From a virus (lineage: Duplodnaviria; Heunggongvirae; Uroviricota; Caudoviricetes), in the IMG/VR virus record IMGVR_UViG_2617270998_000006, positions 1 through 46,468 of that record: 46,468 bases of DNA. One strand, written 5' to 3'. The position numbers and the translations under genes are program-made. The notes under the pieces were generated by a model. The model had not been told where the DNA came from. It saw nothing but the letters and a program-made list of their open reading frames with translations, and did no database searches. Position 1 is the first letter of the stretch. Every line of letters begins with the position of its first letter. Below, in pieces: positions 28,211 to 45,461 of the stretch.

Positions 28211-29242
28211 ATGTCCAATTTACTGACCGTACACCAAAATTTGCCTGCATTACCGGTCGATGCAACGAGTGATGAGGTTCGCAAGAATCTGATGGACATG
28301 TTCAGGGATCGCCAGGCGTTTTCTGAGCATACCTGGAAAATGCTTCTGTCCGTTTGCCGGTCGTGGGCGGCATGGTGCAAGTTGAATAACCGGAAATGGT
28401 TTCCCGCAGAACCTGAAGATGTTCGCGATTATCTTCTATATCTTCAGGCGCGCGGTCTGGCAGTAAAAACTATCCAGCAACATTTGGGCCAGCTAAACAT
28501 GCTTCATCGTCGGTCCGGGCTGCCACGACCAAGTGACAGCAACGCTGTTTCACTGGTCATGCGGCGGATCCGAAAAGAAAACGTTGATGCCGGTGAACGT
28601 GCAAAACAGGCACTAGCGTTCGAACGCACTGATTTCGACCAGGTTCGTTCACTCATGGAAAATAGCGATCGCTGCCAGGATATACGTAATCTGGCATTTC
28701 TGGGGATTGCTTATAACACCCTGTTACGTATAGCCGAAATTGCCAGGATCAGGGTTAAAGATATTTCACGTACTGACGGTGGGAGAATGTTAATCCATAT
28801 TGGCAGAACGAAAACGCTGGTTAGCACCGCAGGTGTAGAGAAGGCACTTAGCCTGGGGGTAACTAAACTGGTCGAGCGATGGATTTCTGTCTCTGGTGTG
28901 GCTGATGATCCGAATAACTACTTGTTTTGCCGGGTCAGAAAAAATGGTGTTGCCTCGCCATCATCCACCAGCCAGCTATCAACTCGCGCCCTGGAAGGGA
29001 TTTTTGAAGCAACTCACCGATTGATTTACGGGGCTAAGGATGACTCTGGTCAGAGGTACCTGGCCTGGTCTGGACACAGTGCCCGTGTCGGAGCCGCGCG
29101 AGATATGGCCCGCGCCGGAGTTTCAATACCGGAGATCATGCAAGCTGGTGGCTGGACCAACGTAAATATTGTCATGAACTATATCCGTAATCTGGATAGT
29201 GAAACGGGGGCAATGGTGCGCCTGCTGGAAGATGGTGATTAG
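28211..29242 (+). CDS. cre: Cre tyrosine recombinase
   Basis: 343-aa ORF essentially identical to P1 Cre as I recall it (MSNLLTVHQNLPALPVDATSDEVRKNLMDMF ... MVRLLEDGD) with a few apparent substitutions. Confidence 0.95.
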   Translation: MSNLLTVHQNLPALPVDATSDEVRKNLMDMFRDRQAFSEHTWKMLLSVCRSWAAWCKLNNRKWFPAEPEDVRDYLLYLQARGLAVKTIQQHLGQLNMLHRRSGLPRPSDSNAVSLVMRRIRKENVDAGERAKQALAFERTDFDQVRSLMENSDRCQDIRNLAFLGIAYNTLLRIAEIARIRVKDISRTDGGRMLIHIGRTKTLVSTAGVEKALSLGVTKLVERWISVSGVADDPNNYLFCRVRKNGVASPSSTSQLSTRALEGIFEATHRLIYGAKDDSGQRYLAWSGHSARVGAARDMARAGVSIPEIMQAGGWTNVNIVMNYIRNLDSETGAMVRLLEDGD

Positions 29243-29259
29243 CCGTCAACGCATAATAA

Positions 29260-29276
29260 ATTGCTCTAATTATTTG
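29260..29276 (+). promoter_or_regulatory. C1 repressor operator
   Basis: ATTGCTCTAATTATTTG between cre and the next gene. Confidence 0.55.
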
Positions 29277-29292
29277 ATATTTATGGTGGCAT

Positions 29293-29604
29293 ATGAGAAA
29301 GGATTTCAACATCGACGGAAAATATGTAGTGCTGTCTGTAAGCACTAATATTCAGTCGCCAGCCGTCATTGTCACTGTAAAGCTGAGCGATAGAATGCCT
29401 GATATTGACTCAATATCCGTTGCGTTTCCTGTCAAAAGTATGCGTAGTGCTGAACATTTCGTAATGAATGCCACCGAGGAAGAAGCACGGCGCGGTCTTG
29501 GTAAAGTGATGTCTGAGTTTGTCGAATTTCTGGGGCTCGTTAACAAAGCCCTCACAATCAGTTCAGCAAGGTCCAAAGCGTTAACAGCTTCCATGATGAA
29601 ATAA
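29293..29604 (+). CDS. hypothetical protein (P1 cra-like by position)
   Basis: 103-aa ORF immediately downstream of cre. Confidence 0.45.
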   Translation: MRKDFNIDGKYVVLSVSTNIQSPAVIVTVKLSDRMPDIDSISVAFPVKSMRSAEHFVMNATEEEARRGLGKVMSEFVEFLGLVNKALTISSARSKALTASMMK

Positions 29605-29630
29605 AAAAAAGCCTGGCAAGGAGCCAGGCT
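29603..29630 (-). terminator. rho-independent terminator, minus-strand orientation
   Basis: Hairpin GCCTGGC-AAGGA-GCCAGGC preceded on the plus strand by A8, so a T-run follows the hairpin on the minus strand. Confidence 0.5.
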
Positions 29631-29736
29631 GCACAAAAGAGCGGGTTTGTATTCCGCATCCAATCAATCAAGAAGGAGTATAGCACACAGGTACTGAAGT
29701 GAAAAAATGTGATTCGCGATAAACAAAATATCTACC

Positions 29737-29760
29737 ATTGCTCTAATTGATTGCTATAAT
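29737..29760 (+). promoter_or_regulatory. C1 operator overlapping a -10 element (ref promoter)
   Basis: ATTGCTCTAATTGATTG followed directly by TATAAT. Confidence 0.55.
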
Positions 29761-29818
29761 TGAGCCGCAGTTTTTGTCAACTACGAAGACGTGCCATTAC
29801 TTAACTCCTTGACATCAT

Positions 29819-29844
29819 AGGCGGCCATTAGGCCGCCTTTTTTT
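29819..29844 (+). terminator. terminator-like hairpin in the ref leader
   Basis: AGGCGGCC-ATTA-GGCCGCCT followed by T7, ending 6 nt before the ref ATG. Confidence 0.5.
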
Positions 29845-29850
29845 GACCAT

Positions 29851-30411
29851 ATGAAAACAATCGAACAAAAAATTGAACAGTGCCGCAAGTGGCAGAAGGC
29901 AGCCAGAGAACGAGCGATCGCTCGGCAACGGGAGAAGTTGGCTGATCCGGTCTGGCGAGAATCTCAATATCAGAAAATGCGAGATACTATCGACCGCCGT
30001 ATCGCTAAACAGAAAGAGCGCCCACCAGCCAGCAAAACGCGGAAAAGCGCTGTAAAAATAAAATCTCGTGGCTTGAAGGGGAGAACACCAACGGCGGAGG
30101 AACGGCGCATCGCCAATGCTCTTGGCGCTCTCCCCTGCATTGCCTGCTATATGCATGGAGTAATATCTAATGAGGTGTCTCTGCACCATATCGCTGGTCG
30201 TACCGCGCCGGGTTGTCATAAAAAGCAATTGCCACTTTGTAGATGGCACCACCAGCATGCAGCACCGGCTGAAGTAAGAGCAAAATACCCCTGGCTGGTC
30301 CCTGTTCATGCCGATGGTGTGGTTGGAGGCAAGAAAGAATTCACCCTGCTGAACAAGTCAGAGATGGAGTTACTGGCTGACGCCTATGAGATGGCAAACA
30401 TCATGCACTAA
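29851..30411 (+). CDS. ref: Ref, HNH-type recombination enhancement endonuclease
   Basis: 186-aa ORF with basic N-terminus and Cys/His-rich HNH-like core (CIACYMHG...HHIAG...CRWHHQ); recognised as P1 Ref. Confidence 0.8.
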   Translation: MKTIEQKIEQCRKWQKAARERAIARQREKLADPVWRESQYQKMRDTIDRRIAKQKERPPASKTRKSAVKIKSRGLKGRTPTAEERRIANALGALPCIACYMHGVISNEVSLHHIAGRTAPGCHKKQLPLCRWHHQHAAPAEVRAKYPWLVPVHADGVVGGKKEFTLLNKSEMELLADAYEMANIMH

Positions 30412-30599
30412 TAAATATATTATTTTTAATGATAAATGATTGACAACTGACAAGTGACTTCAGTCAGAATCATCACACGCCCGGTACGGATGGATCCCTT
30501 TTCAAATATTCCATGGACGGCACAGTCTGAGTACCGGGCGCTACCTTCAGTTGTATTGCTAAGCCGCCGCTGGTGGCTTTTCTTTTTTGTAGGGGCGCT

Positions 30600-31241
30600 A
30601 TGGATAAGAAAATATGCGTTGTTTCGATGAGCGTCGGCAAACCGGCGTCAATGACTGCTGCATGGATCAATAACGAGCTGATAATGGCTGAGCGGACCAG
30701 CTACCCTGAACGCCGCCGCGACATGGAACTCCAGCTGCTGCGCGAATTGCGAGAAAAAGAGGAAAAGGGTTTTATCGTGCTGGTGGAAGAGGAAAACAGC
30801 TTTATTACTGGTCGAGTTGGCCAGCGTGTAAGGTTGCGCGATCCCTTCATGAACGGCAGGCCGGTACTAATTGAGGCAATGCAGATTTATAAGGAGCTGG
30901 AACGCCAGAAAGCAATCAAGTTACCGCGCAAGGAATCCGGCAAATACATCCTCCACCAAAGCATCTTCGATTCCGAACACGATAAAAAAGGCGATGAATT
31001 TTTCAACATCAATTGGAGCGAAATAACGACAGAGCATGTTCTGACGTTACTCTGTTGCTTTGCGACGGAATACAACAACGTTGCCAGCGCCGACTACATC
31101 AGGGCAATGGCTTGTGAAGTGGATAGTCGTGATGACTCATCGCTGATAGCGTCATATATAAACATCATCAAGAAAACTCAAATTATGGGATGCGCTAGAG
31201 TTCCTCAAGGAATACTCACCGGAAAGAATAATATTCTATAA
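30600..31241 (+). CDS. hypothetical protein (P1 mat-position gene)
   Basis: Start moved to internal ATG (MDKKICVV...); last plus-strand gene before the variable region. Confidence 0.4.
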   Translation: MDKKICVVSMSVGKPASMTAAWINNELIMAERTSYPERRRDMELQLLRELREKEEKGFIVLVEEENSFITGRVGQRVRLRDPFMNGRPVLIEAMQIYKELERQKAIKLPRKESGKYILHQSIFDSEHDKKGDEFFNINWSEITTEHVLTLLCCFATEYNNVASADYIRAMACEVDSRDDSSLIASYINIIKKTQIMGCARVPQGILTGKNNIL

Positions 31242-31338
31242 CCTACGAAGGTTATTTGTTACTTTCTGCGTAAACCTACAACTAACCTTCCTAAGTTAAG
31301 GAAGGTATTTATCATGAAGTGTAGACATAAGCGTATTA

Positions 31339-32379
31339 TTACATGGGCTTAACCACAACCTTTCCGTATATATCAAGTTTTGAATGTAATACGTTGACGT
31401 GAGACAATTCTTTATTCGAACTAACTTTATCTAAAATTATATTTTTATCTTTTTCAGTCATGTTATACCCTAAGGTAATTTGCTTGAATGCAGAAAAAGG
31501 AATTTTCTTTAAGTTAATTTCATGATAGTCATGAAAAACATCAGGATACTCATTTAATAGGCAGTCATCAATCGATGGAGAGACAATGCTTCCTATTTTT
31601 CTCTCGCAATCAGCCAATGGAAAAATAATTCTACTTTCATTTTCAGGAAGCCACTCTTCACCTTTTGTATAAAGAAGCCTATTAATAAAAAGCTCGCGAA
31701 CTGAATCTCGATTTAAGATCCCATGCAATGTATTATCTTTATTCTTTATATCTATATTCCTCGATGGCGCAGGATAGCCATTAAATCGCACAGCGCCTTT
31801 ATAATAGGTTACAGATGCTCTATCTTCTGGATTATAACTAACATCACACGGCCGATATATTTTGAAAAAATCGTGTGTTTCATCGAAAACTACAGCAAAC
31901 CCCTTTCCTATCGATGCATAATGAGTCCACATGTGTAGATTGCAATCACTTTTTGATAGAGAGAACACACCAAGATGACAGCTTACGGCTTCTACTAAAT
32001 AATCGTTAAGGTACGTTACTATTTCTTGGAGTTTAGATTCATCATATGAATCCATTGAGGTAAAACCTTCATTGATTAACAAGTGTGGAAAATCCTCTCC
32101 GTATCGTTTCCCGCAAGGTTTTAAATAATACTCTAACTCTTGTATAGATGGGACATAAGATGGATCTCGTTGCATTTTCTTAAATTCATTTCTAGCCCAT
32201 GCGTAATCGGCTGGTGAAAATTTATTAAAAAATGGAAGAAGTCGCGACTCACTCGACGGATCATTAAGATACTTTGGTTGCGTTGCTCTAAAGAAACCAT
32301 CCTCCAGACAAGATGTTCTAATGTGCATGCCCGGCCAAGGTTTATCCATATAACTCTCGCCTATATATTTAACTAACAC
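31339..32379 (-). CDS. DUF2971-like protein
   Basis: 346-aa ORF, visibly AT-rich; N-terminal FxxxxPxxxNDPxxE-like segment (FFRATQPKYLNDPSSE) and central VFSLS...HMWTHYASIGKGFAVVFD resembling the DUF2971 signature. Confidence 0.5.
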   Translation of the reverse strand: MLVKYIGESYMDKPWPGMHIRTSCLEDGFFRATQPKYLNDPSSESRLLPFFNKFSPADYAWARNEFKKMQRDPSYVPSIQELEYYLKPCGKRYGEDFPHLLINEGFTSMDSYDESKLQEIVTYLNDYLVEAVSCHLGVFSLSKSDCNLHMWTHYASIGKGFAVVFDETHDFFKIYRPCDVSYNPEDRASVTYYKGAVRFNGYPAPSRNIDIKNKDNTLHGILNRDSVRELFINRLLYTKGEEWLPENESRIIFPLADCERKIGSIVSPSIDDCLLNEYPDVFHDYHEINLKKIPFSAFKQITLGYNMTEKDKNIILDKVSSNKELSHVNVLHSKLDIYGKVVVKPM

Positions 32380-32431
32380 TGTATGTCGATCCTGTTGTTT
32401 AAGCCCATATCATATGGGCTTTAAATGATTA

Positions 32432-32680
32432 TTAATCAGCATTCAGAAGCAATGCGTTATCTATGATGATCTGCTCCCATTCTTCGAATGCCCGATCGCG
32501 GACACCTTGGGGAACACTGTTAGTTTTGAAATCGACGACCGTCCGCCATTTCCCGTCCGGGCGGTACATGCGCAGAGCTTTACTTCCCCCTTCCCTGCGC
32601 ACCTCAACGTTATGCTTGTCAGCAAACTCTTGTAATGCTCGTAGCGTCCCATGCTTTACTGTGTAGTATCGCTTTTTCAA
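32432..32680 (-). CDS. hypothetical small protein, weak HicA/YcfA-like resemblance
   Basis: 82-aa ORF; segment LQEFADKHNVEVRREGGSKALRMYRPDGKWRTVVDF resembles HicA but lacks the GSHH histidines. Confidence 0.3.
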   Translation of the reverse strand: MKKRYYTVKHGTLRALQEFADKHNVEVRREGGSKALRMYRPDGKWRTVVDFKTNSVPQGVRDRAFEEWEQIIIDNALLLNAD

Positions 32681-32778
32681 GTTTTCTCTCCAGCCTGTGC
32701 CAAGGCTTCAACTTCCAAATCGTAAGACTCAAACTCATAGTCCTGGTCGTCAACTTCTTCAGGCACTGGCAGTAAATG

Positions 32779-33117
32779 CTAGGCTGAGTATATCTGACCA
32801 TTATCAAAACGCTCCTGGCTGTAGAGCGTCGCGGCTATGAGTGTTAGCGCCGGGCGGTCATAACGGTAAATTTTGCGAACGTCACGGTCAACGAGACGAC
32901 CGAAATTACCATAACCGCGCTCCAGTAATAATTTTTTAATTTCCGGCCAGTATGGGCCATAGCTGCGGTACAGACGGGGATTTTTCAGTAATCGCCCGCG
33001 TAGCCCTGACAGGAAGAAATCAACGTATTCGTCTTCTGTCTTTCCTAACAACGCTGTACGGAGTACCGCTTCAAGATATGTTTTATTCGGTTTTATTGTA
33101 TCAGATAGTGTGGCCAT
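32779..33117 (-). CDS. hypothetical protein
   Basis: 112-aa ORF co-oriented with neighbours; no motif recognised. Confidence 0.4.
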   Translation of the reverse strand: MATLSDTIKPNKTYLEAVLRTALLGKTEDEYVDFFLSGLRGRLLKNPRLYRSYGPYWPEIKKLLLERGYGNFGRLVDRDVRKIYRYDRPALTLIAATLYSQERFDNGQIYSA

Positions 33118-33150
33118 ATTATGCGACGCCCGGCGAACCGGGCGCTCCTG

Positions 33151-34518
33151 TTATGCGTATTGTTGGATGACGGCCAGAACGTCCGCCACGTTGTGTTTTG
33201 TCTCGATAATCCACCAGTTACCCGGGAAATCGCTGTTCTTTGCCTTCGCTGGCAGCCAGCGAGCGCCGAATTTCGCCTTGATTGCGTCTTTCGCACGGAA
33301 AAGAATGCCTTTCATGCCGGACGCCTCCTGAAGCCCAAATACCTCGCCAGCGGCGAATTTTGGTGCGTACATCATCTTCAGGTCGGCGGTGGATACGCGA
33401 TAATTCAGACCAAGAGACTGAGCTATGCTGGTGGCATCACCCTGTATTGATGATAACTCTTCTTGTTTCTCGTTTCTGGCGGCAATTTCTTCCTCCGTGA
33501 TGTTGCCAAGGGCCAGGTTTATCCGATCAGCGTCGGCCTGTTTCTCTTCATCGGTGCGCCCGGCAAGAACCGTGTTAATTCTCTGCAATATCTCCACATG
33601 ATTCTTGCGCATGCTGAGCAATTCCGGCGTAACATCGTTAAGAGCCACCAGCCCAAGGATGGCAAGGTCGGAAAACATTGATACCAGGTTGTAGGTCATG
33701 CGATAGCTGAGTTGGCCATAGGCTGATGGCAACTGCACCGCATCCATTTGATAGGCATCCATAAATTTAGAGCCGTCGTTTACGACATCCGCAATTGCCG
33801 GTGTGATTTTCCCTGTGGTGGCGGCCTCCCTGATTGCTGTTACCCACGATTGAGTCAGCGCGGCGACTGCATGATTCAGATTGGCTTTCCGTTCTGCTGC
33901 AATGCGCGCGCTTGCTGCGTCCATTGCCTGCTTGATCTCGTCTTTATTGCTGTAAATGCCAATGGGACCAAACTGTGTTGTGGTGATCTCATAATCTGAC
34001 GCCCGGAACTCATTGGTACCGAAAATGGCATTGGTGACCTCAAGTTCAGAATCCCCGTTACGAGTAGCCCCCTGACTTGTTTTCTCCGGCATTTTTGCGA
34101 TCGCATCCGCTATTTTCTCCTGAATTGCTTCAGGGGATAGCGTATCTCCGTATGACGCGATTACATCGCTATAATTGGATCCAAACAGTTCAGTCAGGAA
34201 TACTTCTGCCAAACGGACCTGGCGGTTATTCCCTTCCGACATCATACCAAGCACCCATTTAGCAATTGACGACTTCAGCGCGCCGTCACGGCGATCCGGG
34301 TAAACCGCATGCTTCAGTGGGTCCGTATAGGTACCAACAAAATCAATGCTATAGCCTGACTCTGTAGTCTGAACGCCGTATGAGTCAGTGATTTTGATCA
34401 TGCCGCGCTGCTGGAAACGGTAGAAATCGTCACAGGAAATGATGTCGTTAATCCCGGCGATGGAGACGCCACCACTGATTTTCTGCATAACAGCATCTTC
34501 ATCGGGAGTTACATCCAC
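33151..34518 (-). CDS. hypothetical protein (455 aa), downstream partner of an overlapping two-gene operon
   Basis: Start overlaps the upstream gene stop by 10 nt; no catalytic or nucleotide-binding motif recognised. Confidence 0.5.
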   Translation of the reverse strand: MDVTPDEDAVMQKISGGVSIAGINDIISCDDFYRFQQRGMIKITDSYGVQTTESGYSIDFVGTYTDPLKHAVYPDRRDGALKSSIAKWVLGMMSEGNNRQVRLAEVFLTELFGSNYSDVIASYGDTLSPEAIQEKIADAIAKMPEKTSQGATRNGDSELEVTNAIFGTNEFRASDYEITTTQFGPIGIYSNKDEIKQAMDAASARIAAERKANLNHAVAALTQSWVTAIREAATTGKITPAIADVVNDGSKFMDAYQMDAVQLPSAYGQLSYRMTYNLVSMFSDLAILGLVALNDVTPELLSMRKNHVEILQRINTVLAGRTDEEKQADADRINLALGNITEEEIAARNEKQEELSSIQGDATSIAQSLGLNYRVSTADLKMMYAPKFAAGEVFGLQEASGMKGILFRAKDAIKAKFGARWLPAKAKNSDFPGNWWIIETKHNVADVLAVIQQYA

Positions 34519-35300
34519 CTGTTATCCAGCGTCTTCACATCCCAGTTACCCGATTTGGTGCCTTTGAAGGTAAAGATGATCTCCACGTCTGCGCGCTGGC
34601 TGTCGAAGTCCAGCGACTTAATGCGAACGATATCACCGGCACAATCGTAGTATTGGCCTACACGCCATGAGCGATCGCCGATAACAAGGAACTCACTCGC
34701 ATGGTTAACCAGGTCAGGATCAACATCCAGAATGCCTTTATTTATTGCATCCTCCACCAGCGGGCGCAGGCGTTTGATATCCGTCGCGGCCTTCTGAGTA
34801 CGGTTCAATAATTTCTCATAGCGGGAGATGGCTTGAGAGATATTAGCCTTGCGCTGAATGGCGCTTTTCAACGACGCGCGATACTGTGCTAACAACATAC
34901 GGTCTGTGTGATGGACACTCCCCCAGCGGGCCTTCCAGTCTGCGTTATCAGCTGCTTTGGCCATTACCGCCTGTTTGAATTTAGCTACCTCGGCGGTGGT
35001 CTTTTCAAATTCCGCTTTGCTTCGCTCTAATTCAGCGGTAAGTACCTCCACATCCTCACCAGCTGCGTGCTGCGCCTTGATGTAGTTCTGAAGGTCGATA
35101 GTAGCCTGTTCTTTCTGGCGAGCGCGTTGCGCGGCTTTCGCCTTATCCATTTGAACCTGCATCATTGCCAGACGTTCACCGTCATCCTTCGCGGTATACA
35201 TCTGCATTTCGATCATATCATTGGCGTCGGCGTTCTCCATTTCTGACTTATCTGAACGGAGGATATCGGAGATCCTGGGCTTCGTTTGGGAAACGTACAA
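34509..35300 (-). CDS. hypothetical coiled-coil protein (about 263 aa)
   Basis: N-terminal half Lys/Ala/Glu-rich and coiled-coil-like; start uncertain (ORF track uses a TTG that lies inside a 16-bp palindrome; first ATG is 20 codons in). Confidence 0.45.
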   Translation of the reverse strand: MYVSQTKPRISDILRSDKSEMENADANDMIEMQMYTAKDDGERLAMMQVQMDKAKAAQRARQKEQATIDLQNYIKAQHAAGEDVEVLTAELERSKAEFEKTTAEVAKFKQAVMAKAADNADWKARWGSVHHTDRMLLAQYRASLKSAIQRKANISQAISRYEKLLNRTQKAATDIKRLRPLVEDAINKGILDVDPDLVNHASEFLVIGDRSWRVGQYYDCAGDIVRIKSLDFDSQRADVEIIFTFKGTKSGNWDVKTLDNRWM

Positions 35301-35309
35301 TATTGTACG
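35294..35309. promoter_or_regulatory. perfect 16-bp palindrome CGTACAATATTGTACG (candidate operator)
   Basis: Overlaps the 5' end of the coiled-coil gene; the half-site ACGTACAATA recurs at 35478-35487. Confidence 0.3.
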
Positions 35310-35478
35310 GTTGCGCTATTGCGGTAGGGTGTACTCCAACGCTATACGGTCTTTGGCAGACCTTTAGGGAAATGAGATAAGCTAAATGCGATAAGAGAAA
35401 AGCAATAACTTAAAGGCAATAGCTGATTACGATAAATCAATCAGTTACTTATCAGTATCGATTAAAAAATGCTCCTAA

Positions 35479-35925
35479 CGTACAATAATTTCCGTTTCCC
35501 AAACCGCCCCCTCCGATCCCGCGCCGGTCTACCCGCAGACGCATCTGAGTTTTCTGGCAAACGTCTATAACCAGAAGGCGCGTGAGTTCTACCATTGTTA
35601 TGGCGTACAGTTGATCGACGCGGCGTATGAAGCGCATCAAGAAAAGGGCGATGTGCCTGTGATGATCACCAAGCATTGCCTGCGTTTTGCCTTTAATCTT
35701 TGCCCGAAACAGGCGAAAGGTAACATCAAAAGCTGGAAAGCGACGCCAATGCAACTGGTCAACGGTGATGAGGTACTGACGCTGAAATTTGGCTGTCGCC
35801 CGTGTGAAATGCACGTTATCGGCAAGATTAAAGATCACATTCTTAAAATGCCGCTGCCGGGCAGCGTGGTGGGTTCCGTCAGTCCGGAAGATCCGATGAA
35901 AACGCTGCCGAAGCGTAAACCTTAA
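35479..35925 (+). pseudogene. 3' fragment of a chromosomal-type gene (possibly U32-family peptidase-like), 5' end missing
   Basis: Open frame starts abruptly after an in-frame TAA with no plausible start or SD for the first 40 codons; GC-rich, unlike the flanking AT-rich DNA; family guess from the C-terminal sequence only. Confidence 0.4.
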
Positions 35926-36029
35926 TCCTTTGCGACATCAGCCCGGTGGCGTTTACCGGGCCTTTGTGTTGGTATTTATTTCCGCCGGTTAACGCCTGGC
36001 CCAAAGCCGACATCCGGCGAGGTGTCCGC

Positions 36030-36158
36030 TTAATGCGCTTTAAACCCCGCCGCAGTCATGAGCAGGCGAAAAAACATGCCCACCGCCGCCAGCGCCAACA
36101 CGCTGCCGCCCCAAAGGATGACCAGCCACATCAGGCGTTTCCAGAGAGAATGTTGCAT
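36030..36158 (-). CDS. small membrane protein (42 aa), putative oxidase accessory subunit
   Basis: MQHSLWKRLMWLVILWGGSVLALAAVGMFFRLLMTAAGFKAH; ATG overlaps the subunit II stop, as for CydX/AppX-type peptides. Confidence 0.4.
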   Translation of the reverse strand: MQHSLWKRLMWLVILWGGSVLALAAVGMFFRLLMTAAGFKAH

Positions 36159-37168
36159 CAGTGATACCCCTCGCCATGTTGCACTTTGCCGCGAAACACA
36201 TAGTAACTCCAGAAGGTGTACACCAAAATCACCGGAATGATGAGCAGCGCACCGACCAGCATAAACCCCTGACTCTGGGCGGGGGCGGCTGCCTGCCAGA
36301 GGGTAACCGAAGGCGGAATAATGTGCGGCCAGATACTGATGCCCAGGCCGCTGAAACCAAGGAAGATTAGCCCGAGCGTCAGCACAAACGGAAACGTGTG
36401 GTTTTCCGGACGACCCAGTGTGCGCCATAACCAGACGCTGAACGCGATCACCAGCACCGGAACCGGCAGCAGATAGCCCAGGTTGGGAAGCGTAAACCAA
36501 CGGTCGGCGATCGCCGGATGCGCTAACGGTGTCCAGAGGCTGATTATCGCAATTGACAACAGCAGGGCCAGCAGCAGTTTTTTCGCGACGCTGCGCATTT
36601 TATCCTGAAGCGGATTTTCGCTTTTCATCACCAGCCAGGTTGCGCCTAAGAGCGCATAGGCAACGACCAGTCCGACGCCACAGAACAGAGTGAAGGGGGT
36701 TAACCAGTCGAACGGCCCGCCGCTGTAGCTGCGACCGGTCACCGGGAAACCGTTGATCACTGCGCCAACCACGATCCCTTGGGCGAAGGTAGCCAGAATC
36801 GACCCGCCGAGAAAAGCATGGTCCCAAAATGGGCGGTGGGCTGGCGTGGCCTTGAAGCGAAACTCGAAGGCCACGCCGCGAAAAATCAGTCCGATCAGCA
36901 TCAGCGTCAACGGAATGGTCAGCGCATCGATAATAACCGCATAGGCCATCGGGAAAGCCCCAAACAGCCCCGCGCCGCCCAGCACCAGCCAGGTTTCATT
37001 ACCGTCCCACACCGGCGCGACGCTATTGACCATCACATCACGATCCTCTGCGTTTCGTGTGACAGGAAACAGAATGCCAATACCCAAATCGAATCCATCC
37101 ATCACGATATACATTAGCGTGGCGAAAACGATGATCACAAACCAGATAACCGATAAATCAATACCCAT
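36158..37168 (-). CDS. cytochrome bd-type quinol oxidase subunit II (CydB/CioB-like)
   Basis: 336-aa polytopic membrane protein with CydB-like N-terminus (VMDGFDLGIG); start overlaps the subunit I stop. Confidence 0.85.
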   Translation of the reverse strand: MGIDLSVIWFVIIVFATLMYIVMDGFDLGIGILFPVTRNAEDRDVMVNSVAPVWDGNETWLVLGGAGLFGAFPMAYAVIIDALTIPLTLMLIGLIFRGVAFEFRFKATPAHRPFWDHAFLGGSILATFAQGIVVGAVINGFPVTGRSYSGGPFDWLTPFTLFCGVGLVVAYALLGATWLVMKSENPLQDKMRSVAKKLLLALLLSIAIISLWTPLAHPAIADRWFTLPNLGYLLPVPVLVIAFSVWLWRTLGRPENHTFPFVLTLGLIFLGFSGLGISIWPHIIPPSVTLWQAAAPAQSQGFMLVGALLIIPVILVYTFWSYYVFRGKVQHGEGYH

Positions 37169-38568
37169 TAGCGATGTGCCTTATGTTGAGAATCGAGGAC
37201 GGCGGCGGAAAGCGGCCTGGCGGGTGTGCCCGGCGGCGGCGCGGAATCATCTTCCAGCGGGCCTTTGCGGATCAGGCGAATCATATAGCTGTAGCCGACG
37301 CCAAAGACTGAGCTGTAGACAACAAAGAAAGCGAGCAACGAAATGCTCATATGTAAATCGCCGTGGGCCGACACCGCGTCGGCAGTACGCTGTAAACCGT
37401 ACACCACCCACGGCTGGCGTCCGACCTCAGTGGTCACCCAGCCCGCGAGAATGGCGATGAGCCCCGAGGGTCCCATCCATAGCGCAAAGCGCAGGAACGG
37501 GCGCGAGGTGTAGAGGCGCTGCCTGTAGCGCAGCCAGAGCGCACAGAGCCCTAGCAGGATCATTAACATGCCCAGGCCGGCCATGATGCGAAACGACCAG
37601 AACACGATCGTCGAGTGAGGGCGATCCTCTTTGGCGAATTCTTTTAGCGCCGGAACCTGTTTATCCAGACTGTGCGTCAGGATCAGGCTTCCCAGCGCCG
37701 GGATCGCCAGTCCATAGCGGGTGCGTTCCTGTTCCATATCCGGCCAGCCAAACAGCAGCAGCGGCGTGGGCTCACCCGGCGGGTTTTCCCAGTGACCTTC
37801 AATCGCGGCGATTTTGGCTGGCTGATGTTTCAGGGTGTTCAGCCCATGCATATCGCCGATTAACGCCTGCACCGGCGCGACAATAAGCGTCATCCACAAC
37901 GCCATGGAAAACATCGTGCGAATGGCTGGCGTTGCGTTGCCGCGCAGCAGATGCCAGGCTGCCGAAGCGCCGACAAACAGCGCGCTACTGAGAAATGCGG
38001 CGACGGACATATGCAGCAGCCGATAAGGGAACGAAGGATTGAAGATAACGGCGAACCAGTCCACGGGCACAACCTGGCCGTTGACGATCTCAAACCCCTG
38101 CGGCGTTTGCATCCAACTGTTAGACGCCAGGATCCAGAAGGTGGAAATGAGGGTGCCAAGCGCCACCATGCAGGTTGAGAAGAAATGCAAACCCGGACCG
38201 ACTTTATTCCAGCCAAACAGCATCACCCCGAGGAATCCGGCTTCAAGGAAGAAAGCGGTCAGCACCTCATAGGTAAGCAACGGCCCGGTAATACTGCCTG
38301 CGAATTCCGAAAAACCGCTCCAGTTGGTGCCGAACTGATAGGCCATCACCAGACCGGAAACCACGCCCATGCCGAAATTTACGGCGAATATTTTTGACCA
38401 GAAGTGGTACAACGAGCGCCAGACCGGATTTTTGCTTTTTAGCCAAAGGCCTTCCAGCACCGCCAGATAACTGGCAAGCCCAATGGTGATCGCCGGAAAG
38501 ATAATGTGAAATGAAACTGTAAAGGCGAACTGGATCCTTGCCAGGTGATACGCATCAAGACCAAACAT
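37168..38568 (-). CDS. cytochrome bd-type quinol oxidase subunit I (short Q-loop, CioA-like)
   Basis: 466-aa membrane protein with CydA-like N-terminus (RIQFAFTVSFHIIFP); about 50 residues shorter than E. coli CydA/AppC, suggesting the short Q-loop subtype. Confidence 0.85.
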   Translation of the reverse strand: MFGLDAYHLARIQFAFTVSFHIIFPAITIGLASYLAVLEGLWLKSKNPVWRSLYHFWSKIFAVNFGMGVVSGLVMAYQFGTNWSGFSEFAGSITGPLLTYEVLTAFFLEAGFLGVMLFGWNKVGPGLHFFSTCMVALGTLISTFWILASNSWMQTPQGFEIVNGQVVPVDWFAVIFNPSFPYRLLHMSVAAFLSSALFVGASAAWHLLRGNATPAIRTMFSMALWMTLIVAPVQALIGDMHGLNTLKHQPAKIAAIEGHWENPPGEPTPLLLFGWPDMEQERTRYGLAIPALGSLILTHSLDKQVPALKEFAKEDRPHSTIVFWSFRIMAGLGMLMILLGLCALWLRYRQRLYTSRPFLRFALWMGPSGLIAILAGWVTTEVGRQPWVVYGLQRTADAVSAHGDLHMSISLLAFFVVYSSVFGVGYSYMIRLIRKGPLEDDSAPPPGTPARPLSAAVLDSQHKAHR

Positions 38569-38691
38569 GCCTGACTCCGCATTAAAAATTGATTCAGCGC
38601 AATTCTAAGCGTGTGAGGCAATGAGGGGCAGAAACAGAACAGACATATTTAACCATAACAGTTTGCAAATCGTTGTGAATTTTATTCACTG

Positions 38692-39150
38692 TTATACACT
38701 GCGAGGCTCACCTGCATTGACCGACGAGAAACCAGAATAAAAAATACCAGCGTCTGGCTGAACAACTTTGCGAACAGATCGCCTCTGGCGTCTGGCGACC
38801 CGGCGACGCGCGGCCTCTTTGCGGTGGGAGTCGGAGTCCATTGCGCTGGCTACGCGCCCGGCAGCAACGAAGTCATAAAGCATATCCTGTGCATGCTCAT
38901 CTACGGTGTCATCACGTAGCGGAATGCGGGCGTATTGTTCTTTGGTAAACACGACTGCACGGTAATTTGAGTGCGGGATTGCATTCATACGTGCCGTGAT
39001 AGTGGCTTCATCTGCCAGTTTAAGGGCATCGCGCATAACTGGAGTGCCATCAGTACCAAGAACAGGAGCACCTCCCACGCTAACGCGCGGGCCCCGAATC
39101 TCACCGTTCTGAAACCACAACAAAAAAACATCAGGAATAAAAAACACCAC
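38692..39150 (-). CDS. hypothetical protein, possibly a gene fragment
   Basis: 152-aa GC-rich ORF upstream of the oxidase operon; no motif recognised; may be a spurious frame in GC-rich DNA. Confidence 0.2.
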   Translation of the reverse strand: MVFFIPDVFLLWFQNGEIRGPRVSVGGAPVLGTDGTPVMRDALKLADEATITARMNAIPHSNYRAVVFTKEQYARIPLRDDTVDEHAQDMLYDFVAAGRVASAMDSDSHRKEAARRRVARRQRRSVRKVVQPDAGIFYSGFSSVNAGEPRSV

Positions 39151-41043: not shown

Positions 41044-44000
41044 TCAGAAACGATATTCCACACTCAACATGGCAGATGTATTATGGTATCCATGTTCTCC
41101 AAGTTGAATGCCTGCATCAGCCCGGAATGCTACTTCTGGTGTTATCATTCCCACAACACCACCATTTATTTCTCCGATATCACGCGCACCATCCTGGTAT
41201 ATACTTACACCATTCATACTGGTGCCGAAAACACGACTATTGTGCAACCAGTGTGCCTCCACAAATGGTCTGAACGGAACCGCATACCGCGTATTTTTAC
41301 CGTTTTTGCTGGTAAGCCATGTTCTTGCTCCCAGGCGGGTGAGAATATTTCCGTTACCGGTATTTTCAATACTGGTTCCGTTACTTTCATGATATTTGTC
41401 TGATTTTACATTCATCCGGACAACCTGAAGCTGCGGCTGAACATACCATTCATGACTTCCCTTGTAATTGTCGGTAAACTCTCCAGCCTTCCATGAATAT
41501 CCTGCTTCCAGAGATACCGTAAACCCTTTTGACTTCCATGACTCAGCAGGCAGCCGTTCTCCATTTATATGATTATCAAACCAGCTGTATTGCAGCCAGC
41601 TATCAAGATAAGAACCATTGTGTGTTTCATCATTGGCATACCATGTTGCATAAAGACCCGCTGTGTATCCATTCATTCTTCCTTCCGAATGGTATCCGGT
41701 GCTCAGGGCATTCGTACTGTTATTATTATGACCATAGCCAGCCATCATACCTGTATGCCAGCGATCGGTACCATTCAGGCTCCACTGAGCTATATCTCCC
41801 CCTATTAACACAACGTAGCTATTCCCCCGGGTTCTCAGCTGACTACTGTTGTCACGCCAGCGATTATGTTTTCCTTTATTATACATCCAGATACCTGCTT
41901 CATTTTCTTCTCCTGTCATGTGGCTGATATACAACTCCTGTCCCTGTCGTTCATACAGATTCGTTACAAACAGATTATTTGCAGCAGCAATACTGGCAAC
42001 ATAGCTACCTGCCTCAGGACGCAAATTATTATCATGGCTTTCCGGTACAGCTTCAGGTTGTGGTACAGGAATGTCTTTTCTGCTAATCAGATACCAGTTA
42101 GTGCTGTTAATCCCCTGACCACGTTTCAGTATGTAATCATAAGCTCCGGCTGTAATACGTTCCGTCTGAATGAATTCAGCATTATCAGCATTGCCACTGA
42201 CGTGAATCACTTCAATCCCATTAAGTGTCTCTGCACCAGTACCACCGGCCTGAGTAACAGCGACACGGGTACGGCCACTGGCATTACCTTTAATCACCAG
42301 ACGATCTGTTTTCGAATTGTCACCACCTGTTTCTGTCTGGAGGAGAATAAGTCCATTTCTGCCAGTGTAATTCCCTCCGACAGTCAGTATATTACCCGGC
42401 ATATATGTAGTGAGATCGACTATACCACTATTGCTCAGATTTCCTGCAACGCCCCCAAACCCGGAGAGTTTGCCCTGCTCTTCAACAATGACCTGGTTAC
42501 TGCCGAGCATCACCGGTGAATCTGCGTTCCCCAGTATCACTGTCCCCTGAATAATATCTGTCATCCCGGTCCATTTTGCGTTATCGCTAATGTTCAGTGC
42601 ACCTGCTCCCGTCTTGCGAACATTACCATAACCACTGATATTGTTGGTAAGCTGCCATGCTGATGTACTGTTCAGAGTTAATGTGCCATAGTTATCAACA
42701 AAGGCTGTCCCCAGATTATCAGCCGTGGATACAGCCAAATGAGCCCCCTTATTCACGGTAAAAACACCGGAAAAATTACGATTATTACCCGTTATATCAA
42801 GCATTCCCCCATTTATGTTCAGAGAACCATCCCCTGCAATAGTACCTGCAGATTCTCCTCCATTATTCAGTATCAGACTTCCGCCATGAATGTTCAGCAC
42901 AGAGCCTGCAGCCGTCAGTAGTTTGCTTATTGTCTGAGGATACCCATTCATATCCAGTTCTGCGCCACGGGATAAATATAAATACTCAGTCCGACCAAGA
43001 GCATCAGGTGCAGCAAGAATTAATACGCCAGATTTAACCTCTGTATTTCCTGTATAATTGTTTGTTGCAGAAAGTATAAGAGTACCATTACCTGATTTTG
43101 TCAGACTTTTGCCGTCCCAGCCATCATATAATAAAGGTGAAAGATTATCGGAAAGAGAAACGCCTATGTTCAGAGTGGCATCTTTTTCTATATTAAAGGT
43201 TCCATATCCCATCCCTTTTGTATTATTCCATCTCAGCATGGATATCAGTTTGTTATCGTCGTCATTTAAAGACGTATAAACATAACTTTCAGCACCTTCT
43301 GTCAGTAATACATTGTATTGTACAATGTGACTATTATCAGCGATCGAGATACCTGTGTCTGACGACAATAATGTGTAATAGTCCTGAGTCCAGTTCTTAA
43401 TTGATGTGTCTATATTAAGCCATGAATCACTTTTTAATGTAATAGTATTTGCGTGAACATTAGCATTTCCTACAGACAGGTTCATAGATGCGTCTTCATC
43501 AATACTTATATTTCCGTTAAAAATGGAGTTCTTGCCTGACAGATAAACAGATGAGCCATTCCCAATCATTAGCCCACCATTAATTGCTGTTGCGTTATTG
43601 ATGTTTTTAATAATTAATTCATTTGTACCATTAACAGGTATACTAGCTAGTTTAATATCACCATTAATCACAGAATCTGAATAAATATCTAATGAATTAT
43701 ACCCGCCAGAAAAAATTATTGATGTATTATAAGCATCTTTTTGGCTATTATATAATCCTGAAAGATTACCATGATTATTAATATGGATATCTTCTCCATA
43801 AACAGAGCAACCACCGTCGGGGCCATATCCCCCCTGAACAATACCGTTATTATTCAAAGTGATTTGATTTCCAGAAATAGCATCTCCCCCTTGTTTTATT
43901 CCATATCCTCCAGATATTATGTTGTCGTTAGTAATGAAAAGATTACTACCATTAATACCATCACCACCGTTTACGCCATTACCGCCCAATATTCCTCCGG

Positions 44001-44541
44001 AATTATGCACTGTAATATTGCTACCGGTTACACCGGAACCACCTGTCCCACCTACATCATCACCTCCGTATATACTTCTGTAATTATCAACTATAATATC
44101 ATCCCCGCTTAACCCTGCACCTCCGCTACTTCCTGAGCCACCAAGACCATTACCCCCATATACATTTCTGTAATTGTTTATAGATATTTTGTTGCCACTA
44201 ACAGCAATTCCACCATTATATCCATCTCCTCCCCAAACACTACCATTATTATTTAGCGTAAAGTTTTCACCGTAGACACCTGCACCACCGATTGATGTAT
44301 TGCTTGTTCCTCCTTTGATGTTAATACTGCTTTCAACAGATAGTATATTTTGAGTATAACTTGTTTTATACGGCACGCTGATATTAAGCGCCGCGTTTCC
44401 ATCAACACCTGTAATACTCCTGGTTATACTTTCAGGTATACCATTACCATTCAGTTGTATTGTTTGCGCACCAGAAAAATGAGACTGCACAGAATAAAGT
44501 ATACTGACCAGAAATTGTAAAATTCGTATATTCTTATTCAT
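41044..44541 (-). CDS. autotransporter (type Va secretion) adhesin-like protein
   Basis: 1165 aa: signal-peptide-like N-terminus, Gly-rich passenger repeats (GGxGxxG, NNYR..GG), C-terminal barrel-like region ending in an aromatic residue (...SVEYRF); visibly AT-rich. Confidence 0.75.
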   Translation of the reverse strand: MNKNIRILQFLVSILYSVQSHFSGAQTIQLNGNGIPESITRSITGVDGNAALNISVPYKTSYTQNILSVESSINIKGGTSNTSIGGAGVYGENFTLNNNGSVWGGDGYNGGIAVSGNKISINNYRNVYGGNGLGGSGSSGGAGLSGDDIIVDNYRSIYGGDDVGGTGGSGVTGSNITVHNSGGILGGNGVNGGDGINGSNLFITNDNIISGGYGIKQGGDAISGNQITLNNNGIVQGGYGPDGGCSVYGEDIHINNHGNLSGLYNSQKDAYNTSIIFSGGYNSLDIYSDSVINGDIKLASIPVNGTNELIIKNINNATAINGGLMIGNGSSVYLSGKNSIFNGNISIDEDASMNLSVGNANVHANTITLKSDSWLNIDTSIKNWTQDYYTLLSSDTGISIADNSHIVQYNVLLTEGAESYVYTSLNDDDNKLISMLRWNNTKGMGYGTFNIEKDATLNIGVSLSDNLSPLLYDGWDGKSLTKSGNGTLILSATNNYTGNTEVKSGVLILAAPDALGRTEYLYLSRGAELDMNGYPQTISKLLTAAGSVLNIHGGSLILNNGGESAGTIAGDGSLNINGGMLDITGNNRNFSGVFTVNKGAHLAVSTADNLGTAFVDNYGTLTLNSTSAWQLTNNISGYGNVRKTGAGALNISDNAKWTGMTDIIQGTVILGNADSPVMLGSNQVIVEEQGKLSGFGGVAGNLSNSGIVDLTTYMPGNILTVGGNYTGRNGLILLQTETGGDNSKTDRLVIKGNASGRTRVAVTQAGGTGAETLNGIEVIHVSGNADNAEFIQTERITAGAYDYILKRGQGINSTNWYLISRKDIPVPQPEAVPESHDNNLRPEAGSYVASIAAANNLFVTNLYERQGQELYISHMTGEENEAGIWMYNKGKHNRWRDNSSQLRTRGNSYVVLIGGDIAQWSLNGTDRWHTGMMAGYGHNNNSTNALSTGYHSEGRMNGYTAGLYATWYANDETHNGSYLDSWLQYSWFDNHINGERLPAESWKSKGFTVSLEAGYSWKAGEFTDNYKGSHEWYVQPQLQVVRMNVKSDKYHESNGTSIENTGNGNILTRLGARTWLTSKNGKNTRYAVPFRPFVEAHWLHNSRVFGTSMNGVSIYQDGARDIGEINGGVVGMITPEVAFRADAGIQLGEHGYHNTSAMLSVEYRF

Positions 44542-44787
44542 ACTGTTTTTTCTTTAGTGATGCATTTTTTATCAACCACACAAGCACATTATTTCATTGA
44601 TACTAATCACATCAGGATGAATGTTTTTTCTCAATAGAAATAAGTGTCTTTATTCCTTACCAATTTATTCTGGTTATTCCTCTTATCCAGACGTCTCGTG
44701 ATACTCCCTGTATTTATTATAGAGTATATATATGTACTGCGTTTAAATCATGAAGACGACAACCTGTTTTACATAAATTATTCCTAA

Positions 44788-45461
<674 letters not shown>

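Follow-up and report, generated by a model that had tools for sequence, protein, structure and literature searches.

What occupies the place of the type III restriction-modification (R-M) genes of phage P1 in the P1-like element IMGVR_UViG_2617270998_000006 is the question raised by this locus. The window, that is, the whole stretch of 46,468 nucleotides that was analysed and to which all coordinates refer (position 1 being its first letter), holds five co-oriented minus-strand open reading frames (ORFs) beside this place. Their number, strand and sizes are as given in the initial annotation, in which they were read together as a five-gene cargo array and as a candidate for an anti-phage or plasmid-exclusion module, while all five are labelled 'hypothetical protein' in record AP027771.1. 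The ORFs are as follows.

31339-32379, minus strand, DUF2971 ORF, 346 amino acids (aa) from a GTG start and 336 aa from the ATG at 32349
32432-32680, minus strand, 82-aa ORF
32779-33117, minus strand, 112-aa ORF
33151-34518, minus strand, 455-aa ORF
34509-35300, minus strand, 263-aa ORF

In this study, we find that the region is a segment of the P1 backbone in which the type III R-M genes are replaced by a single-gene cassette, followed by lxc, a mutated ulx and a broken darB, and that only 31242-32431 replaces EcoP1I res-mod. The position had been recognised correctly, since in P1 the interval from mat to lxc houses res and mod (plus IS5): a res-mod-IS5 block of 6281 bp (P1 3469-9749) fills the site there, and no such cassette is present. 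With the exception of a 692-bp IS5-like match at 44770-45458, the P1 block encoding the EcoP1I res and mod genes has no counterpart in the window. The proposed array breaks up at the first gene boundary: P1 homology restarts exactly at the lxc stop codon (32432) and continues at ~98% identity to 35275, and P1, P7 and other Punavirus records align without a break over 32432-35275 at ~98% identity (megablast). Four of the five ORFs are conserved core genes of P1-like phages at this position. The description of the remaining protein as AT-rich and DUF2971-like was confirmed, with a GC content of 32-37% against ~47-52% in the flanks and a score above the Pfam DUF2971 threshold. The idea of a variable, horizontally exchanged block at a defence position is retained for the mat-lxc interval and given up for the other four ORFs; likewise, an anti-phage role is plausible for the DUF2971 gene and is not for the five genes together. 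The cassette comprises the following features.

31242-32431, no strand assigned, cassette of 1190 bp and 35.4% GC with one gene, exchangeable, at the res-mod position (RD-1)
31285-31306, no strand assigned, terminator-like hairpin (stem of 8 bp) located between mat and the DUF2971 gene, which are convergent
31339-32349, minus strand, DUF2971 gene, predicted ADP-ribosyltransferase (ART)-like stand-alone defence candidate, 336 aa from the ATG
32401-32421, no strand assigned, cassette-borne hairpin AAGCCCATAT-C-ATATGGGCTT, directly 3' of the lxc stop

The cassette flanks beside the single ORF (97 and 82 bp) contain no ORF. Copies with no less than 98.8% identity to the cassette were found in 88-90 plasmids of PLSDB and in two 'P1' phage records whose darB is intact, so that about 90 of ~700 P1-like plasmids (~13%) carry the DUF2971 cassette, their hosts being E. 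coli, Salmonella and Shigella. Sampling among the 711 PLSDB records matching the neighbourhood showed that the mat-lxc interval holds many alternative occupants across P1-like plasmids, including RelA/SpoT, SIR2, GNAT, YaaC together with a 169-aa ORF, EAL together with a helix-turn-helix (HTH) protein, KilAC and DUF4145, or nothing at all; in the 'empty' site of pZ0117EC0062-2 only 39 bp separate mat from lxc. Records that match as two separate places probably represent larger inserts such as res-mod. All seven measured cassettes are AT-rich (32-39% GC). Next to lxc, a hairpin rich in GC was present at most of the examined sites, the empty one included, each cassette type contributing its own.

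Several of these occupants are related to known defence. The SIR2 occupant matches the PADLOC models PDC-S25, ThsA and LmuA, and the occupant in SJ46 is a RelA/SpoT protein matching PADLOC PDC-S33; the defence CapRel-SJ46, which has been validated experimentally, comes from phage SJ46 (PMC9712102). The GNAT (L008:1592-2200), YaaC plus 169-aa ORF (L009:1522-3032) and EAL plus HTH (L010:1220-2865) cassettes matched no PADLOC model and are possible uncatalogued defence candidates. The site itself corresponds to RD-1, which has been reported as variable among P1-like plasmids (Venturini et al. 2019, PMC6906374) and is the same mat-lxc interval (P1 3,469-9,749), likewise AT-rich, with res-mod swapped for element-specific ORFs; the occupant in the window, however, is a DUF2971 gene, which is absent from the three plasmids of Venturini et al. 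RD-1 was not called a defence hotspot in that study (PMC6906374), and Pfeifer et al. 2024 treated defence genes in phage-plasmids generally and did not discuss the mat-lxc site. Taken together, our survey supports mat-lxc as a variable, horizontally exchanged, AT-rich position that carries defence genes in P1-like phage-plasmids.

The protein encoded by the cassette belongs to the DUF2971 family. It matches Pfam DUF2971 (PF11185) at 28.4-28.6 bits against a cut-off of 22 over residues 140-241, all 45 aligned homologues match the same Pfam family, and the RefSeq label of the gene is 'DUF2971 domain-containing protein'. Four PADLOC PDC-S31 hidden Markov models (HMMs) also match it (E = 3.2e-16, 2.4e-14, 9.4e-11 and 1.4e-06); PDC-S31 is likewise a single-gene candidate, of computational origin only. 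The name 'PDC-S31' did not occur in the literature searched, and DUF2971 is not mentioned by Rousset et al. 2022. There are 75 cluster-level homologues of ~350 aa with 36-54% identity (Klebsiella, Serratia, Vibrio, Shewanella, Salmonella and others), and a profile search with a limit of E <= 1e-3 retrieved 8718 clusters. About 90 plasmids carry the ORF intact, its product being 98.5-100% identical across Escherichia, Salmonella, Shigella and Klebsiella. Across relatives with 23-40% identity, R21, D30, Y144, Y172, K229, W233, E238, R240 and G294 are invariant, R21 lying within F-R-x-T-Q-P-x-x-L-N-D and Y144 within W-x-H-Y, and E236 is at least 90% conserved.

DUF2971 has been described as an ART family near DarT and AbiGi in which the His of motif I is weakly conserved, while a conserved Tyr, an ExE motif and long helical inserts are present (PMC12522546). 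An AlphaFold (AF2) model built from 45 homologues, with a mean predicted local distance difference test score (pLDDT) of 89.5 and a predicted template modelling score (pTM) of 0.84, places E236-x-E238 at the start of strand 238-244 (strand 5) and shows long helical inserts preceding this strand as well as between strands 1 and 2. The conserved residues and the predicted topology thus match the published description of DUF2971 ARTs (PMC12522546), and R21, Y144 and E236-x-E238 are proposed as the putative catalytic residues. SopF, DarTG, DarT1 and CteC were among the lower-ranked matches in structure comparison of the model, with modest scores. A Foldseek search of the model against PDB gave nothing significant, sequence-profile searches of PDB (alignments A2 and A3) gave no meaningful match, and Pfam searches of the 45 homologues at E <= 10 gave no DarT or AbiGi cross-match. 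Weak Foldseek matches to small tRNA-splicing endonuclease domains, which probably come from the C-terminal beta-beta-alpha-beta-beta domain, were set aside since His317 of this domain is not conserved family-wide.

The closest known system in description is Aristaios, a 316-aa protein of Lactococcus plasmid pUCCL641 that was shown experimentally to be a single-gene, abortive infection (Abi)-like DUF2971 defence (Grafakou et al. 2024, PMC11381338). Aristaios impairs phage transcription and its AlphaFold model is ART-like (PMC11381338; review PMC13064643). It resembles the window protein, by description, as a single gene of ~320-340 aa with Pfam DUF2971, on a mobile element and with no partner gene, but differs in its Gram-positive host; a tblastn search of PLSDB with the DUF2971 protein gave no Lactococcus match at E <= 0.01. 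In contrast to DarT of DarTG (7YK3, 7OMV, 8BAQ), the window cassette has no gene for a DarG macrodomain antitoxin, its neighbours being mat and lxc, and the window protein is not a DarTG member because it has no partner gene. It also differs from DarT by an Arg instead of the His at the presumed motif I position, by the two large helical inserts and the extra C-terminal domain of DUF2971, and by the lack of sequence-level similarity in HMM searches. The DUF2971 family is already catalogued (Pfam, PADLOC PDC-S31) and has one validated defence member in Aristaios, and the variability of RD-1 is published; what this locus adds is an enterobacterial candidate subfamily and a view of mat-lxc as a point where defence genes may be exchanged, several of its occupants being uncatalogued.

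The genomic contexts of homologues offer a further view of the gene. A Salmonella homologue with 49% identity is an opposite-strand single gene between gpV (baseplate spike gene) and gpS (tail-completion gene) of a P2-like prophage (L016:8001-9050), a position that we take to be that of P2 orf30. In Klebsiella, a homologue is located within a small islet of the chromosome and adjoins an AAA_15/AAA_21 ATPase, and ATPases of this type are common in defence systems. That unrelated temperate elements acquired such a gene independently, each time as a one-gene insert, is in keeping with an accessory function expressed in the lysogen. A more distant paralogue with DUF2971 (~26% identity) was also observed on many non-mobilizable Klebsiella and Enterobacter plasmids of ~107-128 kb in PLSDB (e.g. 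NZ_CP082792.1 31008-31541), which possibly constitute another phage-plasmid family.

Based on these comparisons, we propose that the DUF2971 protein is probably the product of a stand-alone ART-type defence or superinfection-exclusion gene. In the scheme that we infer, the gene would be expressed from the plasmid prophage and would act in abortive-infection-type defence or superinfection exclusion. We envisage its product as an NAD+-dependent ADP-ribosyltransferase within the DarT-like branch, whose catalytic residues would be R21 (strand 1), Y144 and E236-x-E238 (start of strand 5). Since the DUF2971 gene comes without an antitoxin gene, autoinhibition within one polypeptide is proposed, in which its own large helical inserts or C-terminal domain may hold the enzyme inactive. 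Infection by another phage would then activate the enzyme, a nucleic acid or a transcription or replication factor would be modified, and phage development would be blocked. As the promoter scan found no sigma-70-like site upstream of the DUF2971 gene, transcription probably reads through from the lxc promoters, which are active in lysogens.

Several points weigh against this proposal. Expression of the gene is itself deduced in the way just described, and an unguarded toxin-like enzyme lacking an antitoxin is unusual for DarT-like ARTs. The PDC-S31 alignments are partial, covering 64 of 273 positions of the best model and 147 of 259 of the second, and centre on residues ~118-184; the placement of R21 and Y144 as ART motifs I and II is tentative; and the sequence similarity of the window protein to Aristaios is probably very low.

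The protein might alternatively be an offensive factor of the phage, an anti-defence or host-takeover ART that modifies host proteins for the benefit of P1 instead of defending against other phages, which we consider unlikely. Phage-encoded ADP-ribosyltransferases do exist, with Alt, ModA and ModB of T4 as precedents. The fold of the predicted model may be ART-like and the DUF2971 gene stands directly beside the anti-restriction genes ulx and darB, but the same site swaps in bona fide defence genes (res-mod, CapRel-SJ46, SIR2), the Klebsiella homologue adjoins an ATPase of a type linked to defence, and the homologue in the P2-like prophage, as an opposite-strand single gene, has the arrangement typical of lysogenic-conversion genes. 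While ~18% of DUF2971 proteins are predicted to be secreted effectors (PMC12522546), the sole family member tested acts in defence (PMC11381338).

It is also conceivable that the gene is a neutral passenger with no current function in a decaying P1-derived plasmid, since the adjoining ulx and darB are dead and the backbone carries insertions. To this we give little credence: the ORF is of full length, the protein keeps 98.5-100% identity across ~90 plasmids, some of them with intact darB, and every residue invariant across the family is kept. A role mainly as a plasmid-addiction or stress toxin, which would stabilise the P1-type plasmid with no phage specificity and take over the addiction role of res-mod, is suggested by the contribution of P1 res-mod to plasmid maintenance (Venturini et al., PMC6906374) and by the fact that DarT-like ARTs are toxins of toxin-antitoxin systems (PMC12522546). 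However, this seems improbable for a cassette that has no antitoxin partner and a subfamily that is also present in integrated P2-like prophages; moreover, the site is 'empty' in otherwise complete P1-like plasmids, and therefore nothing at this site is needed for maintenance. We thus keep to stand-alone defence or superinfection exclusion as the favoured function of the DUF2971 gene.

The other four ORFs are accounted for by the backbone features to the right of the cassette, listed below together with the segment inserted there.

32432-32680, minus strand, lxc (bof), C1 co-repressor, intact P1 backbone gene, 82/82 aa identical to P1 Lxc; PHROG 2160, 7.8e-57
32677-33117, minus strand, ulx pseudogene (Ulx-like anti-restriction); PHROG 1629 'Ulx-like anti-restriction', 1.7e-54
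33151-35275, minus strand, darB 3' remnant, DarB residues 1549-2255 of 2255; tblastn with P1 DarB, 99.2% and 97.4% identity in two frames
35276-38797, no strand assigned, foreign segment of 58-62% GC with DUF2474, cydB and cydA (minus strand), standing in place of DarB codons ~1024-1548
35284-35504, no strand assigned, element of ~221 bp resembling a miniature inverted-repeat transposable element (MITE), located precisely where darB is broken and ending in imperfect terminal inverted repeats of 26 nt
38798-39066, minus strand, second darB fragment (269 bp), DarB residues ~934-1023, 96.3% identity to P1 13420-13688 of locus L002

The 82-aa protein, which had been called HicA-like, is Lxc itself: it shows no HicA signal and no Pfam match at E <= 0.1, and the position and strand of its gene, upstream of ulx-darB, are as in P1. 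In P1 and in relatives with 99.9% identity, ulx has 146 codons and overlaps lxc. In the window, a G-to-A change on the coding strand at 32780 turns W113 (TGG) into TAG, leaving 112 aa; this W113* mutation (32779-32781) is also present in AP027771.1, while relatives that are 99.9% identical keep an intact ulx. Both lxc and ulx belong to the conserved backbone at this position, the pair being found in 699 PLSDB plasmids.

The coiled-coil (263-aa) and 455-aa proteins of the initial annotation, rather than being cargo, are DarB residues 1549-1798 and 1800-2255, respectively, which together make up the last 707 codons of the 2255-aa darB. With P1 DarB as tblastn query, these two parts fall in different frames, and a 1-nt deletion (TTT to TT, 34522-34523), common to plasmid AP025206.2, splits the gene. 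In agreement with this, the 455-aa ORF corresponds to positions 1812-2278 and the 263-aa ORF to positions 1541-1809 of PHROG 1685 (DarB, 2278 positions). A PADLOC match of the 263-aa ORF to a JetC/MukB-like model (E 0.009) was discarded as coiled-coil noise, given that this ORF is DarB 1549-1798. The Pfam search gave nothing useful for the 82-, 112-, 455- and 263-aa ORFs, which were resolved by PHROGs and by direct comparison with P1. The absence of methyltransferase and helicase motifs, as noted before, is real but simply reflects the loss of the N-terminal two thirds of darB: the window darB lacks residues 1-933 and ~1024-1548, and with them the regions that the P1 annotation names as methyltransferase and helicase. 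Compared with the Dar system of P1 (NC_005856), the 112-, 455- and 263-aa ORFs are those very genes, with order and strand unchanged, whereas darB is truncated and frameshifted and ulx prematurely stopped in the window, against a 2255-aa darB and a 146-aa ulx in P1. The Dar anti-restriction genes darB and ulx are thus, to judge by these lesions, inactivated in the window element.

Although the five ORFs are co-oriented, tightly spaced and adjoin the res-mod position, and four of them have no Pfam match, the reading of the initial annotation, in which they form one co-transcribed uncharacterised anti-phage or plasmid-exclusion module replacing res-mod, is hardly tenable and already refuted by P1 homology, given that four ORFs are lxc, ulx and two darB fragments with 97-100% identity to P1, that lxc-ulx occurs in 699 plasmids regardless of the cassette carried, that two of the ORFs were created only by frameshift and truncation, and that the ulx nonsense mutation is confined to this lineage.

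P1 homology breaks at 35275 and restarts at 38798-39066. Across 366 E. coli records, a 237-bp block (35276-35512) containing the MITE-like element was matched at 676 places, of which 671 are on plasmids, the median per genome being 2; it is unannotated. The foreign segment that begins with this element measures 3.5 kb. In pEcoUTI1e, the cyd segment has the opposite orientation to that in the window and lies between two inverted MITE-like copies. Dozens of plasmids derived from P1, in E. coli, Salmonella and Shigella, share the operon for a cytochrome bd-type oxidase inside darB.

The left flank of the variable site consists of the following genes.

28211-29242, plus strand, cre
29293-29604, plus strand, c8
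29851-30411, plus strand, ref
30600-31241, plus strand, mat (maturation control), left flank of the variable site; PHROG 1837, 3.9e-108; a 642-bp coding sequence in RefSeq relatives

The synteny with P1 described earlier as cre, a cra-like gene, ref and mat is real, 28525-31120 being 96.8% identical to P1, except that the P1 record has c8, not cra, following cre. P1 homology stops at 31120, the last ~120 bp of mat having already diverged from P1, and the C-terminus of Mat varies with the cassette type. The closest PLSDB records, AP027771.1 and AP025206.2, match the window only from ~30143-30376 onward and lack an intact cre-c8-ref stretch. Near the other end of the window, the IS5-like fragment at 44770-45458 lies on the opposite strand, is 91.9% identical to the IS5 interrupting P1 mod, and follows a Phd/RelE pair (annotated in AP025206.2, which is 99.96% identical) and a gene for a 1165-aa autotransporter (41044-44541).

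For annotation, this locus teaches that arrays of ORFs without Pfam matches beside a known landmark can be pieces of a very large known gene such as darB. For the element itself, the P1 record's annotation of darB states that DarB protects against type I restriction, and with the loss of darB and ulx, particles of the window element, if formed, should be sensitive to type I restriction. For P1-like phage-plasmids at large, mat-lxc can be framed as a defence-gene exchange point that has already yielded CapRel-SJ46, and the cassette described here offers one compact, clonable candidate defence gene of 1.2 kb in a family whose only tested member is from Lactococcus. More tentatively, with chances that we put at somewhat short of even, the ~350-aa gammaproteobacterial DUF2971 subfamily, found as a one-gene insert in P1-like phage-plasmids and P2-like prophages, may be a self-guarded ART immune effector that would unite sensor, inhibitor and toxin in one polypeptide, with a trigger and a target unlike those of DarTG, and the mat-lxc site may be a minable defence hotspot in which the GNAT, YaaC plus 169-aa and EAL plus HTH cassettes would represent new systems.

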